From a virus (lineage: Duplodnaviria; Heunggongvirae; Uroviricota; Caudoviricetes), in IMG/VR virus record IMGVR_UViG_2737471839_000018, positions 1 to 10,087 of that record: a DNA stretch of 10,087 bases; one strand, 5' to 3'. Both the position numbers and the translations under genes were made by a program. Under the pieces are notes generated by a model that was not told where the DNA came from, made no database searches, and was given only the letters and a program-made list of their open reading frames with translations. The stretch's first letter is position 1. Each line of letters starts with the position of its first letter. Below, piece by piece: positions 1-4,859 of the stretch.

Positions 1-251
1 GGTCATGGCCTCCATAGTGATGGCGGGTCCTCCTTGTGGGGTGCCCTGCCACGGGGCGGGAGCATCGCGGAAAAAGGCTAGTTTTTGCATTTTTATTCGT
101 CATCACCACCAATGCAATATATTGATATGACTTGATGTTTTATTTTTCGGTGTCGATTTCGATTGTTTTTTGTTCATCACTGACGCATAACGCCCACCAG
201 CGCAACGCTGAAAGCCAGTCAGTAAACTGGCTTCGGTCATTGTGCACTACG

Positions 252-794
252 TTACTTGTCTTTATCCGGCTGAAACTTATCAGGCACATTTCCGGTAGTT
301 TCCATCAGATAATCGGACAGCATTCGCGGGATGTTTTCATCAAGTTTTGTGCATGCGTTACAGGCTCTGACAACTTCTTTTTTCAGGCCATCCAGCATGG
401 CGGGGGTCATCTGTGGGAAGCTCCTTTGCATAGTAAGCGGCAGGCTGCCCATGATTGAAGAAATCTGACTCGCCAGTTTTGAAAGCGCATATATACAAAA
501 TTCCGTACTAATCACATCGCCGCGTTCGCTCTCGTTTTTAAGCTCCTGCGCCTCCGCCTGCGCTGTCAGCAATCTGATCCTGACTCGCAAAAGCTCATCA
601 TTATCAATCTCTCCTTTGTCGTTTGTAAGCTGGTTAATTGCATTGTTAACCCTATTGTCTATCACGCTGGCAACATCATAAAACGCCTCACGGCCTTTAC
701 GCTCAACGGGAGTCACTCCCCACTTGTCGAATGCTGTAGCACTTACCCGGCAGCTTTGCGCCATGGTTTTTTTGTTCATCAGGTGCGATTTCAT
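252..794 (-). CDS. Small terminase subunit, lambda Nu1-like (TerS)
   Basis: Translation has the segment RLLTAQAEAQELKNESERGDVISTEFCIYALSKLASQISSIMGSLPLTMQRSFP...KLDENIPRMLSDYLMETTG, which matches lambda Nu1 as I recall it (RLTRAQADAQELKN...AFCTFVLSRIAGEIASILDGLPLSVQRRFP...LDELIPGLLSEYIEQSG). The N-terminus (NKKTMAQSCRVSATAFDKWGVTPV) resembles the Nu1 winged-HTH region. The ORF-track start at 797 is TTG; ATG codons are at 794 and 779, and 779 (MNKK...) aligns best with Nu1 MEVNKK. Stop TAA at 252-254. Confidence 0.85.
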   Translation of the reverse strand: MKSHLMNKKTMAQSCRVSATAFDKWGVTPVERKGREAFYDVASVIDNRVNNAINQLTNDKGEIDNDELLRVRIRLLTAQAEAQELKNESERGDVISTEFCIYALSKLASQISSIMGSLPLTMQRSFPQMTPAMLDGLKKEVVRACNACTKLDENIPRMLSDYLMETTGNVPDKFQPDKDK

Positions 795-821
795 CAATAT
801 CCCAACTTGGTCAAGGTTTCA

Positions 822-896
822 GGTTGGTGTGTTGGTGTTATCTTTCCCTTTTTATTCATGGAGATAGAGCAAACAACAAAACCACCACCACCACCC
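822..896. repeat. Candidate cosB-like repeats between cosN and the terS start: tandem GGTTGGTGT/GTTGGTGTT (822-839) and (ACC)5 tract (881-896)
   Basis: Direct repeats seen in the sequence at the position where lambda carries its R-sites and IHF site. The sequence is unlike the lambda cosB R-sites as I remember them. Function is inferred. Confidence 0.3.
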
Positions 897-927
897 TGAA
901 AAAGCTCATAAATAGCGAAAAACCGCG

Positions 928-939
928 AGGTCGCCGCCC
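928..939 (-). other. Lambda-type cohesive end site cosN (12-nt overhang sequence)
   Basis: Plus strand 928-939 reads AGGTCGCCGCCC, the lambda right-end cohesive sequence. The minus strand reads GTTACG GGGCGGCGACCT CGCGGTTTTTCGCTATTTATGA, nearly identical to the lambda left end for about 35 nt, then diverges. Orientation is cosN, then cosB, then terS, as in lambda. Confidence 0.8.
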
Positions 940-971
940 CGTAACAGGTCCATATGCCGGAAAGGACCCGC

Positions 972-997
972 AAAAAAGCCGGATTTCTCCGGCCTTT
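972..997 (-). terminator. Rho-independent terminator ending the capsid operon (hairpin also usable from the plus strand)
   Basis: Stem GCCGGA (978-983), loop TTTC, stem TCCGGC (988-993). Flanked by A6 on plus (T6 on minus) and by CTTTTCT on plus. Sits immediately after the stop of the 137-aa gene at 1000. Confidence 0.7.
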
Positions 998-999
998 TC

Positions 1000-1413
1000 T
1001 CAGATGGTTTTCAGTATGCGATCGATGTCGCCGTCATCGCCCGGGTTTCTGCCATCGTATGCCATGCCAGCTGATACGGCTTGTGGGCTGTGCATGTCCA
1101 TAAAGTTTTCAAAGGCTGCGGTAAGCTCTGGTGCAACCTTCGGGCGTTCCTGCTCTATGGTCATGTTCAGGATGTTTTTAGCCGTATCAACATCAATACA
1201 AGGCACGTTTGCCATTGCACGTAACAGCGGCTGATAGTCGTCAGATTCATGAAGCGACATAATCGCATCAGCGCGCGGCTTGTCCTGTTCTTCCAGTTTG
1301 TTAAGTTGATATATAGCTTCGTAGGTTGATAGACATCTGTCAGCCATTGCCCGCGCTTCGGCTTTAAATTTACTCGCCAGCGGTAGCGCCATGATACTTT
1401 CATTCGTTGCCAT
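1000..1413 (-). CDS. Hypothetical protein (137 aa), last gene of the capsid operon
   Basis: ATG at 1413-1411 preceded by CAGGGGGAACG (SD-like). Follows the D-like gene by 12 nt. Acidic C-terminal region. No family recognised. Confidence 0.65.
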   Translation of the reverse strand: MATNESIMALPLASKFKAEARAMADRCLSTYEAIYQLNKLEEQDKPRADAIMSLHESDDYQPLLRAMANVPCIDVDTAKNILNMTIEQERPKVAPELTAAFENFMDMHSPQAVSAGMAYDGRNPGDDGDIDRILKTI

Positions 1414-1425
1414 CGTTCCCCCTGC

Positions 1426-1761
1426 TTATCGCGCCAGCGGCTGAACGGATACACCAGAACCCGCAAAGGCGGCACATTTTTTCGCGTCGGTGTCGACGCT
1501 CTCAGGCCAGTTAACGGCGGCAATATTGAATATCCCCGTCTTGTAACACTGTGCTGATTTCTGCGTTGACGTGTCCACGGGATACGCCGTCAGATAAACA
1601 GCCTTGCCAGATTCCTGACCATCCCACGGCTTAAATTCGCCATTGTCCGCCAGCATCAGCGGGGTAAATTCCTGAATAACGCCAGCATCAGCGGCAAAAT
1701 GTACCAGCGTCGTGGCGACCTGCTGACTGCCTGCAAATAACTCAATGTATGGAGTGTCCAT
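1426..1761 (-). CDS. Head decoration protein, lambda gpD-like
   Basis: 111 aa. Motifs TPLMLA, WDG, YKTGIF, WPESVDTDAKKCAAFAGSGVSV parallel lambda gpD ([37 protein letters not shown]) as recalled. ATG at 1761 with a GGGGGA SD. Confidence 0.85.
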   Translation of the reverse strand: MDTPYIELFAGSQQVATTLVHFAADAGVIQEFTPLMLADNGEFKPWDGQESGKAVYLTAYPVDTSTQKSAQCYKTGIFNIAAVNWPESVDTDAKKCAAFAGSGVSVQPLAR

Positions 1762-1772
1762 AGAATCCCCCG

Positions 1773-2828
1773 TTAACCAATTTTGACGGTAACAAATTTG
1801 CGAATATCTGCCGGAACAGGCTGCGGTGCGCTGTGCGTCTGCACGTACTCAATCGCCGGATCGCCGTCCTCAATCCAGTTTTTCGGGTAAAACATGTTTT
1901 GCGTTGCGCCCGTTCTGACCGCTTCCTGATCCATAATCGCACCATAGGCCACCAGCCCTTTATTGTTGGTGTTGCCCAGGACCAGCAAATCAGGCTCAAG
2001 GAAATATTTTTCGGTGCCGTCGCTGTCAGTGTATTTGCCGGAATAGACGATAAGGGCAATATCGCCCAGATATCCTTTAAAGCTCACCACTTCGCCCAGG
2101 TTTTTACAGGCCAGCTCTGCGGCGGACTCTGAACCACGGGAAAGATCGTACAGTTCGCGGAATTTTTTAAAGCTGCGTAATGTTCGCCATACCTCAGCGC
2201 CCATGATCATGACGTTGGCGGGGCAACCTGCTTGATCCGCATAAAGCTCGATATCATAAATTGGATCGTGGGTTTCTTTGTCCTGCTCGGACCATTTACG
2301 GCCTTTGGCCTGCTCTATGATGTTTTTTTCCGGTATCTTCCAGTCGATTTCATAGCGTTCTATGCCCTCGCCCTCAATGATGTTTTTTCCGGTCGTTACC
2401 GCATTCACCGCCAGCCATTCCACGCGCGCTTTAATCGCGTTTATCTGGCGGCGCATGTTGCCAGTAATCAGGCGCATACGGCGATAGGTTGGGTCATTAA
2501 GCTGTGCCGGATCTTCTGCAGCCATACGCATGATGGTTTTCGTTGGATCGATTTCGTGCTTCGGCTTCATGTATCCAGGTTTAATCGTGCTGGTTTCGTA
2601 CCCTTTATCGCGCTGGACCTGACTACCCACCATAGGCGAACAAAACGCCGACATCGTAACCTCTTCAATGTCCAGGGTGTCCAGCATGATGTTTTGGGTG
2701 TTGAATGTCGCCACGTTCGGGAAAAACAGCGTGGTAAACAGCGGACTGAATTTAAATTCCGCAATATCCCCGCGATTCAGGTACGCGAAAAGCTGGTTAG
2801 TGTTAAGTGCCGTTGCTTTGCCTGCCAT
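1773..2828 (-). CDS. Major capsid protein, lambda gpE family
   Basis: 351 aa. Shares many blocks with lambda gpE: FKFSPLF..LFF, PGYMKPKHEIDP, DPAQLNDPTYRRMR, RGSESAAELACKNLGEVVSFKGYLGDIALIVYSG, VLGNTNNKGL.AYG, YPKNWIEDGDPA. ATG at 2828 with SD GGAGGTG. TAATG overlap with the upstream gene. Confidence 0.93.
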   Translation of the reverse strand: MAGKATALNTNQLFAYLNRGDIAEFKFSPLFTTLFFPNVATFNTQNIMLDTLDIEEVTMSAFCSPMVGSQVQRDKGYETSTIKPGYMKPKHEIDPTKTIMRMAAEDPAQLNDPTYRRMRLITGNMRRQINAIKARVEWLAVNAVTTGKNIIEGEGIERYEIDWKIPEKNIIEQAKGRKWSEQDKETHDPIYDIELYADQAGCPANVMIMGAEVWRTLRSFKKFRELYDLSRGSESAAELACKNLGEVVSFKGYLGDIALIVYSGKYTDSDGTEKYFLEPDLLVLGNTNNKGLVAYGAIMDQEAVRTGATQNMFYPKNWIEDGDPAIEYVQTHSAPQPVPADIRKFVTVKIG

Positions 2829-3034
2829 TATTCACCTCCATGCGTCTGATTCATGCCCAGCGCCGCGCGTAAATAGGCGCGGACCTGCCAGCCTGTTGAC
2901 GGCTCAACCATTGCCAGCGGATCAAGTCCTGCCTCAATGCCTGCTTTTACGTTCTGCTGGTGGCGTTCCTTGAGCGCCTTCACGATGTCGGGGCTTATGT
3001 ACACCGAAACACCGCCTTTTTTCTCTTCAGCCAT
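2828..3034 (-). CDS. Hypothetical small protein (68 aa), first gene of the capsid operon
   Basis: ATG at 3034 with SD AGAGGAA upstream. Its stop TAA overlaps the ATG of the capsid gene (translational coupling). No family recognised. Confidence 0.6.
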   Translation of the reverse strand: MAEEKKGGVSVYISPDIVKALKERHQQNVKAGIEAGLDPLAMVEPSTGWQVRAYLRAALGMNQTHGGE

Positions 3035-3062
3035 AGTAAGAAATTCCTCTTCGACTTAAAAA

Positions 3063-3130
3063 ATCATAACTGGATGTTCATCCAGTTATGATTATAATCA
3101 TGATTGCATTTTGTGCAATGGTATTGAGTT
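3063..3130 (-). promoter_or_regulatory. Putative capsid-operon promoter/operator: 30-bp perfect palindrome plus palindromic ATTATAAT (-10-like) and a second dyad ATTGCA-N5-TGCAAT
   Basis: ATCATAACTGGATG-TT-CATCCAGTTATGAT at 3063-3092 (14-bp arms). ATTATAAT at 3091-3098 reads as TATAAT on either strand. ATTGCATTTTGTGCAAT at 3104-3120. All lie 30-100 bp upstream of the operon ATG at 3034. The -35 is weak. Confidence 0.45.
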
Positions 3131-3199
3131 GTGTTGCAAATTATGAAATTATTATCCCAATCATGTGTGTCAGTGCACCAAAAAGCCTCATATGCAAAA

Positions 3200-3237
3200 G
3201 CCCGATAAGAACCCTCTGACCTTATCGGGCTTTTTTT
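3200..3237 (+). terminator. Rho-independent terminator oriented for plus-strand transcription
   Basis: GCCCGATAAG (3200-3209), 11-nt loop, CTTATCGGGC (3221-3230), followed by T7 (3231-3237). Confidence 0.55.
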
Positions 3238-3242
3238 GGGGC

Positions 3243-3265
3243 AAAAAAGCCGGATTGCTCCGGCT
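3243..3265 (-). terminator. Rho-independent terminator for the 74-aa gene
   Basis: AGCCGGA-TTGC-TCCGGCT hairpin (3248-3265) preceded on plus by A6, which is T6 after the stem on minus. Same core as the hairpins at 978-993 and 3611-3628. Confidence 0.65.
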
Positions 3266-3284
3266 ATGTGTGCTGTGTGCTGGC

Positions 3285-3509
3285 TCAGTCTCTGATCTCT
3301 TTCAGAAATTCTATCAATGCATCTATCTGTTCAGGATTTACCGCCAGCATTTCACCGGATAGCGCACATCTGACAAATCCATGCCGATCCTTTTCAATCA
3401 ACGCGCCCGTTTCCAGGAATGCGCGGTAATCAGTGATGTTCATCGTCTCCATGTTGTCAGCATGGTATTTATCACGCTGTTTTAATATCTCATCAAATTT
3501 CATCGGCAT
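3285..3509 (-). CDS. Hypothetical small protein (74 aa)
   Basis: Chosen start is ATG at 3509 (MPMKFDEIL...) with strong SD CAGAGGAAAAAACA. The longer ORF-track start at 3587 has no SD and abuts the upstream terminator. Monocistronic between two terminators. Confidence 0.6.
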   Translation of the reverse strand: MPMKFDEILKQRDKYHADNMETMNITDYRAFLETGALIEKDRHGFVRCALSGEMLAVNPEQIDALIEFLKEIRD

Positions 3510-3604
3510 TGTTTTTTCCTCTGTTGTGTCTGTTTGTTTCAGATAGTAACTATGCCGGACCGTGACGAAAACCCGGTAATGCGCCATACCGTTTCAACTG
3601 GTGC

Positions 3605-3628
3605 AAAAAAAGCCGGATTTCTCCGGCT
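3605..3628 (-). terminator. Rho-independent terminator for the PerC-like gene
   Basis: A7 (plus 3605-3611), then AGCCGGA-TTTC-TCCGGCT (3611-3628). On the minus strand the stem is followed by T7. Confidence 0.7.
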
Positions 3629-3634
3629 GTGTGA

Positions 3635-3907
3635 TTAGCTGTACTGGTAATTGCGCCATATATCATCACCAGCACCATCCATACCCATTTCGGCATAAGT
3701 GCGATCGACTGCCTTTTTCAGGTCTCCGAAATTATCCGGCGGCTCCGGTGCCCTCTGTGCCTTCCTTGAACATTCCAGCCGTCGCATCGTGATGTGATGC
3801 CGTTCCTTGTCTGTCTCCACCAGCTGCATGACTTCACCCCATCGCGCCGCCGCCCTCCGGTAAAAGCCTTTCGCCTCCAGTTCCTCCGCTATGCGGTCAT
3901 GTACCAT
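3635..3907 (-). CDS. PerC-family-like transcriptional regulator (90 aa)
   Basis: N-terminal AEELEAKGFYRRAAARWGEVMQ resembles the PerC family signature as I recall it (moderate certainty). ATG at 3907. The SD is a G10 homopolymer. Confidence 0.6.
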   Translation of the reverse strand: MVHDRIAEELEAKGFYRRAAARWGEVMQLVETDKERHHITMRRLECSRKAQRAPEPPDNFGDLKKAVDRTYAEMGMDGAGDDIWRNYQYS

Positions 3908-3909
3908 CG

Positions 3910-3919
3910 CCCCCCCCCC
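3910..3919. repeat. Homopolymeric tract C10 (G10 on the coding strand) between the ssb stop and the PerC-like start
   Basis: Counted directly: C at 3910-3919. Minus strand reads TGA-GGGGGGGGGG-CG-ATG. Confidence 0.9.
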
Positions 3920-4330
3920 TCAGAACGGAATATCATCACCGTAAGGGTCATCGCCTCCAGCTGGTGGCTGATTACCCTGTGTGCTTGTGGTCTTGCGTCG
4001 GCTCCCGCCAGGACGGGCAGCACTGGCACTGATTACACTGTCTGCGATAACCTGATAACCCTGCCGCGTTTCCCCGTTCTGTCCGGTCCACTGGCTAACC
4101 TGTATCGTGCCGGATACGCTGGCAACATCGCCTTTTTGATGTTTAGCCAGGTAGTCGGCCTGCTTGCCAAATGCGATGACCGACAGCCATAACGTCGCCT
4201 GTCCGTCCTGTGCCTGGCTGCATGGCAGCGATACCGCCATACGAGCCAGCGTCATTGGTGTGCCCTTGCTGGTCTGTTTTACCTGCGGGTCGTCCACCAG
4301 CCGCCCGTAAGCGGCTATCTGTGCTGTCAT
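3920..4330 (-). CDS. ssb: Single-stranded DNA-binding protein (SSB)
   Basis: 136 aa. OB-fold-like blocks (GRLVDDPQ, WLSVIAFGKQA, QKGD, WTGQNGETR), a Gly/Pro/Gln-rich linker, and a C-terminal acidic tail ending DDIPF. ATGA overlap with the upstream gene. Confidence 0.85.
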   Translation of the reverse strand: MTAQIAAYGRLVDDPQVKQTSKGTPMTLARMAVSLPCSQAQDGQATLWLSVIAFGKQADYLAKHQKGDVASVSGTIQVSQWTGQNGETRQGYQVIADSVISASAARPGGSRRKTTSTQGNQPPAGGDDPYGDDIPF

Positions 4331-4572
4331 GATTCCACCTCTCCGGTTTTAACGTTGATGGTTGTTACCTGTTCCGCTTCGGCAATCTCCCGTTCTGTCA
4401 GCGTGGCAAAGTTTGCCGCCGTCGTGGTCATGAATGCGCTTATCAGTTCGGGATGTGCTTTCGCGTATCCTTCCCCGGCGTTGCGGTCGATGATTTTTAT
4501 CGCCACCCTCAGCCAGTGTTCTGTCAAATCAAGGGCGTGAGATTGTGGTTTTTTGGCGTGCTTCGTTGTCAC
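4327..4572 (-). CDS. Hypothetical protein (81 aa), coupled to ssb
   Basis: Only an in-frame GTG start at 4572, with GAGGT about 8 nt upstream. Stop overlaps the ssb ATG. Lies directly downstream of the iteron region. Confidence 0.5.
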   Translation of the reverse strand: MTTKHAKKPQSHALDLTEHWLRVAIKIIDRNAGEGYAKAHPELISAFMTTTAANFATLTEREIAEAEQVTTINVKTGEVES

Positions 4573-4620
4573 AGGCTTTACCTCACAGCAATAAAATAAA
4601 ATTTTTGCATTTCAACCCTT

Positions 4621-4846
4621 CACCTGTTCACCTTTTGCAATTTTCCCTTTTTATTCATAATGTTAAGGGGTGAACAGTTTCACAAAAACTATTCACCAAC
4701 TGTTCACCACTGTTCACCCTTAAAGCTCAATAAAGAATCAAAAAGGTGAACAGTGAATAGTTTGGTGAACAGTTCATAAATAACTGCTCACCCTATAATA
4801 TACTGATATAAAAGACATTTATTGCAGGGTGAACAGTGGTGAACAG
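4621..4846. repeat. Iteron cluster / putative origin of replication (TGTTCACC octamers in both orientations in an AT-rich context)
   Basis: Perfect TGTTCACC at 4625-4632, 4701-4708, 4711-4718. Perfect reverse GGTGAACA at 4669-4676, 4745-4752, 4764-4771, 4828-4835, 4838-4845. Degenerate copies near 4692, 4754 and 4785. To my recollection this octamer is the P4 alpha-binding type I iteron of ori/crr. Confidence 0.75.
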
Positions 4847-4859
4847 TTATTCCATAAGT

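Follow-up and report, generated by a model that had tools for sequence, protein, structure and literature searches.

Genetic Organization of the Capsid Operon

The window analyzed here is the whole stretch of 10,087 nucleotides at positions 1 to 10,087 of the IMG/VR virus record IMGVR_UViG_2737471839_000018, assigned to the Caudoviricetes. Judged by its genes, it is a Gram-negative phage-inducible chromosomal island (PICI) of the type of EcCICFT073, the island of Escherichia coli CFT073. A tyrosine integrase, AlpA, a DUF4222 protein, a D5-type primase, SSB, PerC, the capsid operon, and a Nu1-like small terminase/Rpp-type protein are all encoded on the minus strand, and it is this content that gives the window the architecture of a Gram-negative PICI. 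The capsid operon is the subject of this study, in particular the two small proteins of 68 and 137 amino acids (aa) encoded at its ends, the second of which very probably contains a homologue of the C-terminal domain of the lambda scaffold Nu3.

Read along the minus strand, the operon begins with the 68-aa gene (2828..3034), followed by the genes for a gpE-like major capsid protein of 351 aa (1773..2828; Phage_cap_E, E=1.6e-51) and a gpD-like head decoration protein (1426..1761; HDPD, E=2.1e-18), and ends with the 137-aa gene (1000..1413), in agreement with an earlier note on this DNA. In EcCICFT073 the order is the same, from PerC through the 68-aa, capsid, decoration, and 137-aa genes to RppA. 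Synteny with the late module c1498–c1501 is accompanied by high protein identity, namely 96% for the 68-aa protein, 97% for the capsid protein (c1499), and 93% for the 137-aa protein. The capsid gene is named c1499 and the decoration gene c1500 in the literature (PMC6092414); given this naming, the consecutive numbering, and the published replacement of “c1498–c1501”, we infer that the flanking genes are c1498 (RefSeq C_RS07005) and c1501 (RefSeq C_RS07020), the homologues of the 68-aa and 137-aa genes, respectively.

The 68-aa open reading frame (ORF) runs from an ATG at 3034–3032 to a TAA at 2830–2828, and base 2828 is common to this stop codon and the ATG of the capsid gene, which creates a TAATG overlap. 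The two genes had been described in the earlier note as translationally coupled. The overlap itself is real, but dependence on upstream translation does not follow from it: the three codons with which the 68-aa gene ends, GGA GGT GAA (GGAGGTGAA, 2839–2831), form a strong Shine–Dalgarno sequence with GGAGG placed 6 nt 5′ of the capsid ATG, so the capsid gene need not rely on ribosomes arriving from upstream. The same arrangement accounts for the GGE in which the 68-aa protein invariably ends, as its codons constitute that ribosome-binding site.

Both small ORFs are real genes under purifying selection. In comparison with the CFT073, Pluralibacter, and Salmonella copies, the ratio of nonsynonymous to synonymous substitution rates (dN/dS) is 0.06–0.2 for the 68-aa gene; it is 0.17–0.27 for the 137-aa gene and lies between 0.06 and 0.27 across all four operon genes. 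The conservation was further assessed in 80 IMG/VR loci carrying this capsid gene (L088–L167). The capsid gene is intact in every one of them, the 68-aa gene is full length and adjoins the capsid gene in 79, and the 137-aa gene is full length in 69, with about six of the others truly truncated or deleted and the remainder interrupted by contig ends. Relative to lambda itself, the capsid protein is 44% identical to gpE and the decoration protein 38% identical to gpD over 76 aa. Among lambdoid phage counterparts in general, identities amount to 44–46% for the capsid protein, 37–38% for the decoration protein, and 22–34% for the scaffold domain described below, and the gene order is rearranged (E-D-Nu3′ in the island versus C/Nu3-D-E in the phages). 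These values and the rearrangement indicate an old, co-diverged, and maintained set rather than a recent capture. The capsid protein of the island is practically the one whose crystal structure, that of c1499, has been deposited as PDB entry 3BQW, a “putative capsid protein of prophage” (E=5e-234), which means that an experimental structure exists for it.

The 137-aa Protein and the Lambda Scaffold

According to the lambda annotation, gene C holds the scaffold gene Nu3 nested in frame, so that gpNu3 and gpC have a common C-terminus. It is to this shared domain that residues ~45–137 of the 137-aa protein are very probably homologous. The protein matches phrog_1999 at E=5.2e-63, and residues 117–200 of lambda Nu3 match the same family at E=2.7e-26. 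Its second match in PHROGs is phrog_53, a head maturation protease family, at profile positions 493–567 of 583 (E=2.2e-8). By BLASTP, the protein aligns with the last 83 residues of P0183, a prophage S49 peptidase/gpC homologue (34% identity, E=5e-10), in an alignment that takes in the TAxFExFMxxHSPxAV...DGDxD tail; residues 36–136 align end to end with residues 349–437 of lambda gpC (E=0.04). A local hhalign comparison of the 137-aa and Nu3 families gave E=1.8e-4. The significant homology covers the C-terminal ~85–90 residues of Nu3/gpC, with a common R-x3-I...E...R-x2-A-x2-P-x3-V-x2-A-x2-IL motif and an acidic tail. The statement in the earlier note that neither small protein is recognizable as a scaffold was therefore mistaken for this one.

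The resemblance is limited to that domain. Unlike Nu3, which lies 5′ of D, the 137-aa protein is encoded by a stand-alone gene 3′ of the D-like gene rather than by an in-frame part or extension of an S49 prohead protease gene preceding D and E. A protease portion is missing (no Peptidase_S49 match was found), as are the first ~115 residues of Nu3, in place of which there is an unrelated N-terminus of 45 residues. No match was obtained in Pfam at E<=0.1 or in NCBIfam at E<=1, none in a tblastn search of 50,697 phage records, and none at E<=10 when the family profile was compared with PDB sequences. A scan of viral contigs with lambda Nu3 recovered lambda copies that are nearly identical, and nothing else.

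Lambda Nu3 is a scaffold whose partners are gpE, gpB, gpC, and Nu3 itself; procapsid assembly depends on it, and it is eliminated during maturation (PMC3224144). The most likely role of the 137-aa protein would be that of a cognate internal mini-scaffold or a procapsid-targeting partner of the island capsid protein. Several observations call for caution: no relatives of the N-terminal ~45 residues were detected, the hhalign probability for the Nu3 family is only 49% and was obtained from shallow alignments, the gene is partly or mostly lost in the ~6 of 80 related islands mentioned above, and more distant islands have a different small gene in its position, as is the case after the decoration gene in both the Pluralibacter and the Salmonella islands. 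Many identical or near-identical NCBI records of the protein bear the name “phage head–tail connector protein”. Apart from this name, little speaks for such a function, which we regard as barely credible: the absence of a Pfam connector family or an NCBIfam model at the thresholds given is against it, the reciprocal profile evidence favors the Nu3/gpC C-terminus, and a portal and other neck proteins are missing from the island. The identification as a Nu3-type domain would correct this misleading database name. As c1501 is not called Nu3-like either in the studies of EcCICFT073 cited below or in the paper on helper-embedded PICIs (PMC10111431), the annotation appears to be new, if small. It is the one modest addition to a locus that is already known.

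Other potential relatives of the domain were considered and set aside. Stand-alone “Nu3-like” proteins of 135–137 aa (P0155 and others, 76% identical to lambda Nu3) were not used as satellite homologues; in the one case checked in context, P0168, the gpC gene is cut at the contig edge of an ordinary lambdoid phage. The phrog_657 genes (68 and 77 aa) that follow the decoration gene in the Salmonella and Pluralibacter islands are likewise unsupported as miniature versions of Nu3, with a BLASTP E-value of 0.81 to the 137-aa protein and a sole gpC match that falls in a different region. Variants of the 137-aa protein itself (P0028, P0030; L106, L114, L115, L123, L128, L159) belong to two classes: proteins of 93 aa with in-frame deletions of residues ~21–64, in which the Nu3-like C-terminal domain is kept, and variants reduced to the last 18–75 residues.

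Promoter and Leader of the Operon

A candidate promoter of the capsid operon is located at 3091..3118 on the minus strand, with TTGCAC (3118–3113), a 16-nt spacer, and TATAAT (3096–3091). A TTGCA-N5-TGCAA palindrome (3118–3104, minus strand) overlaps its −35 element. TTGC, TGCAAT, and TATAAT are invariant in an alignment with the CFT073, Pluralibacter, and Salmonella PICIs, and likewise across the 80 IMG/VR loci. The promoter at 3091–3118 was not flagged by a consensus scanner, because its −35 element matches the consensus at only three of six positions.

Downstream, a perfect inverted repeat with 15-bp arms, AATCATAACTGGATG-AA-CATCCAGTTATGATT, is followed by a T-run (3058..3093, minus strand); it overlaps the −10/+1 region and precedes the Shine–Dalgarno sequence of the 68-aa gene. 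The repeat occurs once in the window. Its core, CTGGAT-N4-ATCCAG, is nearly invariant in the 80 loci and recognizable in the Salmonella and Pluralibacter PICIs, while the outer stem shows compensatory changes, some of them compatible with G–U pairing, mixed with mismatches. From its sequence and position, the repeat may be either an operator (candidate 3093–3062) or a promoter-proximal terminator or attenuator. The leader as a whole is kept across genera (window 3058–3118, minus strand; L083:5380–5440; L084:6905–6975; L086:6905–6975). It could combine an activator site with a promoter-proximal terminator, with read-through dependent on the helper or on PerC/AlpA, or it could contain an operator. 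An Rfam search of the leader did not find a known RNA family.

At the other end, the four-gene unit is closed by a terminator-like hairpin, GGCCGG-AGAAAT-CCGGC with a T-run (972..998, minus strand), which a hairpin search placed on the plus strand at 978–993. Two further terminator-like hairpins on the minus strand (3265–3248 and 3234–3196) set the operon apart from the replication/PerC module that precedes it. With hairpins on both sides (3265–3196 and ~998–972), the four genes constitute a self-contained transcription unit.

The 68-aa Protein: an Orphan with Possible Ribbon–Helix–Helix Features

The 68-aa protein belongs to an orphan family, phrog_3255 (E=2.8e-36). A profile search of 1.84 billion representatives returned 14 proteins at E<=0.001, most of them fragments or variants of the same family. 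A tblastn search of 50,697 phage records gave no match, the family profile found nothing among PDB sequences at E<=10, and neither the 68-aa alignment nor the capsid protein led to a confirmed match in scans of genome contigs. Outside E. coli, homologues with 62% and 68% identity lie directly 5′ of the capsid gene in islands of Pluralibacter and Salmonella, respectively. The Salmonella island carrying the trio of 68-aa, capsid, and decoration genes adjoins a GpA_ATPase fragment (L086:1–1821), and it is therefore probably a helper-embedded PICI inserted in the large-terminase gene of a prophage.

Two alleles of the gene occur among the 80 relatives, encoding proteins ~94–99% and 66–68% identical to that of the window. 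Their first 15 residues and the last three (GGE) are identical, and the differences are confined to residues ~16–65. Neither allele is tied to particular capsid, 137-aa, or upstream/promoter variants, and the flanking sequences are common to both. A third allele, with 47% identity, may be present in L130.

Several features are reminiscent of ribbon–helix–helix (RHH) proteins. As in autoregulators of the CopG/Arc/MetJ type, the protein is small, its gene is the first of the operon, and the promoter is associated with an inverted repeat. The N-terminal motif GVSVYISPDIV-helix follows positions 2–19 of RHH_1 in register: in sub-threshold profile matches, residues 9–26 (VSVYISPDIV...) fall on these positions, that is, on the strand and the start of helix A. 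An AlphaFold2 model built from the family alignment (pLDDT 73) shows an extended N-terminus and helices at 15–34 and 47–58, a predicted order of strand-like N-terminus and two helices that might suit an RHH fold, and RHH, CopG, NikA, and antitoxin proteins recur among its best BFVD matches, none of which is significant. No RHH profile scored above threshold. RHH_1 was matched at E=0.15–0.2 with 12 bits against a cut-off of 20.5, and the best E-value for BrnA among 16 members was 0.017, also sub-threshold. Unlike typical RHH proteins, moreover, the 68-aa protein has a long inter-helix loop and no net positive charge. In view of these differences and the lack of a significant match, it was not filed as an RHH member.

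The single most likely role of the 68-aa protein, put forward tentatively, may nevertheless be that of a small dimeric RHH-like autoregulator of the operon. The inter-helix loop of ~12 residues, atypical for RHH, and the non-basic character of the protein weigh against this proposal. So does the alternative reading of the inverted repeat and T-run as a promoter-proximal terminator, which is equally possible and agrees with some compensatory changes of the outer stem. Covariation between operator and protein was considered as a test of DNA binding and proved uninformative: the repeat core is common to both alleles, which even occur with identical upstream sequences. That no covariation was seen counts against the proposal; in its favor, the two alleles do not differ in the N-terminal strand that would read the DNA, just as they do not differ in the repeat core. 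The second most likely role, that of an assembly partner of the capsid protein, is doubtful. The specific idea that the protein represents the missing N-terminal part of Nu3 in a split scaffold was rejected, as hhalign against the Nu3/gpC family gave E=0.4 with a probability of 0.15%. Profile searches, proposed in the earlier note, have thus placed the 137-aa protein in the Nu3/gpC C-terminal domain and left the 68-aa protein an orphan; correspondingly, the idea of two assembly factors survives for the former, which is of the assembly type by homology, whereas for the latter it has nothing beyond the fixed place beside the capsid gene.

Published Evidence and Possible Functions

The published experiments on EcCICFT073 considered here used two helpers, lambda and phi80. 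With lambda, the packaged DNA is exclusively of phage size, as are the capsids, and interference persists when c1499 or c1500 is deleted (PMC6092414). When the genes 3′ of ori were expressed singly, lambda was blocked only by c1503/RppA, to which the redirection of packaging is due (PMC6739421). Islands in which c1498–c1501 were replaced by cas9 or melA still yielded transducing lysates with phi80 delta-cos (PMC10530653, PMC10460865). These studies report the size of packaged DNA and transfer rather than capsid composition (PMC6092414, PMC10530653), and with only two helpers covered, a helper-specific role in assembly may exist.

Against this background, different explanations of the two small genes can be compared. 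The earlier note saw in them candidate assembly or size-control factors; in this reading, one or both would redirect capsid size or packaging by acting on helper proteins, comparable to Sid, CpmB, or a portal/terminase adaptor. Satellites offer general precedents, the genes are co-expressed with capsid functions, and helper specificity could be what the variable central cassette of the 68-aa protein reflects. However, such a role is contradicted by the phage-sized capsids of EcCICFT073, by the assignment of redirection to Rpp (c1503), with no other singly cloned post-ori gene interfering with lambda, and by the transfer of the replacement islands. Deletions with no effect on particle formation had been named in the note itself as evidence against its proposal, and the results reported for the near-identical EcCICFT073 genes with lambda and phi80 amount to this. 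Searches of Pfam, PHROGs, NCBIfam, and PADLOC revealed no similarity to Sid, CpmA/CpmB, Ccm, or other known redirecting factors, and PADLOC found no defense-system match. For lambda and phi80 this explanation is largely refuted, and overall it is highly improbable. Another view would take both proteins as assembly partners of the capsid protein, the 137-aa protein as the scaffold and the 68-aa protein as a second scaffold subunit, chaperone, or adaptor following a logic similar to that of SaPI CpmA/CpmB, so that satellite shells could be built on the portal and protease of some helpers. The presence of three shell components (capsid, decoration, and scaffold domain) similarly diverged from the lambdoids and under purifying selection is in keeping with it, as are the 68-aa gene that never parted from this capsid gene across genera, the central 50 residues of its alleles, which are uncoupled from their flanks and resemble a specificity cassette for an external partner, and the limited scope of the published tests. 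Yet packaging and transfer of the island continue when all four genes are replaced, the packaged DNA is phage-sized only, and the 68% and 97% alleles both stand beside capsid genes that are 94–99% identical, without co-variation. In addition, the 68-aa protein does not detectably resemble Nu3 or any other scaffold, and a capsid gene with its own strong Shine–Dalgarno sequence does not imply stoichiometric coupling with it. We consider this view rather unlikely.

A third possibility is that the operon, once captured from the late genes of a helper, is now decaying and without function, its small ORFs being leftovers. PICIs do capture helper late genes (PMC10111431), the block is dispensable for transfer, and ~6 of 80 islands have a truncated 137-aa gene or none. 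The low dN/dS of all four genes, the near-complete conservation of the capsid and 68-aa genes, the age of the set suggested by its divergence and rearranged order, and the retention of the promoter region across genera make this very unlikely nonetheless. As with SaPI CpmA/CpmB, SaPIbov5 Ccm, P4 Sid, and capsid-forming PICIs (cf-PICIs), capsid-related genes are carried by a satellite, and as with Ccm and the cf-PICIs, the island encodes its own homologue of an HK97-fold capsid protein. In contrast to size-controlling satellites, EcCICFT073 gives no small capsids with lambda and can dispense with the block for transfer; in contrast to the cf-PICIs, the island of the window has no portal, protease, large terminase, or head–tail adaptors; and in contrast to SaPI and P4, its proteins show no sequence similarity to CpmA/B or Sid.

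The explanation we favor, with moderate confidence, is that c1498 and c1501 and their homologues in the window belong to an accessory PICI module and encode a possible autoregulator and a probable mini-scaffold, respectively. The four genes would be transcribed as one unit from the candidate promoter at ~3118–3091 to the terminator at ~998–972. The 137-aa protein, as a stand-alone Nu3/gpC C-terminal domain about as diverged from lambdoid phages as the island capsid and decoration proteins are, would serve the capsid protein as a mini-scaffold or as a partner in procapsid targeting. The 68-aa protein, confined to this PICI lineage, would autoregulate the operon through CTGGAT-N4-ATCCAG between the −10 element and the ribosome-binding site. 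The module would be accessory in that it is not needed for packaging and transfer mediated by lambda or phi80, does not redirect capsid size, and is not an interference factor; this status derives from the published experiments on EcCICFT073 genes that are 93–97% identical.

The established picture is left unchanged: Rpp redirects packaging, and with lambda or phi80 as helper the block is not needed. What a Nu3-type domain in c1501 would add is that the island possesses a matched set of capsid, decoration, and scaffold genes and not a stray capsid gene, which makes it directly testable whether a satellite of this kind ever builds its own shell. A puzzle lies in the retention under selection, in many E. 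coli, of a dispensable matched set together with a private small gene. As an unlikely solution, EcCICFT073-type islands might be “shell-forming” satellites, intermediate between classical PICIs and cf-PICIs, and it is similarly speculative that the capsid, decoration, mini-scaffold, and orphan 68-aa proteins would build the shell on the portal and protease of some helpers. If this were true, the two cassette-like alleles of the 68-aa gene would set helper compatibility or operon control, and the shells would have been overlooked since assays covered lambda, phi80, DNA size, and transfer only.

Relation to EcCICFT073 and Other Features of the Window

Compared with EcCICFT073, the window is a mosaic variant. 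Its best whole-length matches in E. coli are 91–93% identical at 76–95% coverage, or 98.6% identical over 70%. A full-length Nu1-like gene of 181 aa takes the place of the 144-aa RppA of CFT073, and an additional gene of 74/100 aa is situated between PerC and the capsid operon; the promoter and hairpin upstream of the operon are alike in both. At least 80% of the four-gene block is covered in 591 of 5426 complete E. coli genomes, and some match is present in 1188, so that the block is carried by roughly a tenth to a fifth of them.

The packaging gene of the window (252–797, minus strand) encodes the 181-aa protein of the Phage_Nu1 family (Pfam, E=3.4e-21), for which no PDB sequence match was found at E<=0.001. 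The 144-aa RppA of CFT073 shows weak matches to small-terminase profiles. In the region 7293–8213 the GC skew becomes positive, and a minus-strand ORF of 306 aa without a family match is probably spurious. The expected divergent regulatory zone of the island contains two plus-strand ORFs of 59 aa (7696–7875 and 7933–8112) and a weak SymR-like Rfam match at 7497–7569 on the plus strand (E=0.004, below the gathering threshold). Just 3′ of the primase gene, a long AT-rich, hairpin-forming stretch (4674–4787, minus strand), with only spurious miRNA-like matches in Rfam, is probably the replication origin region of the island.

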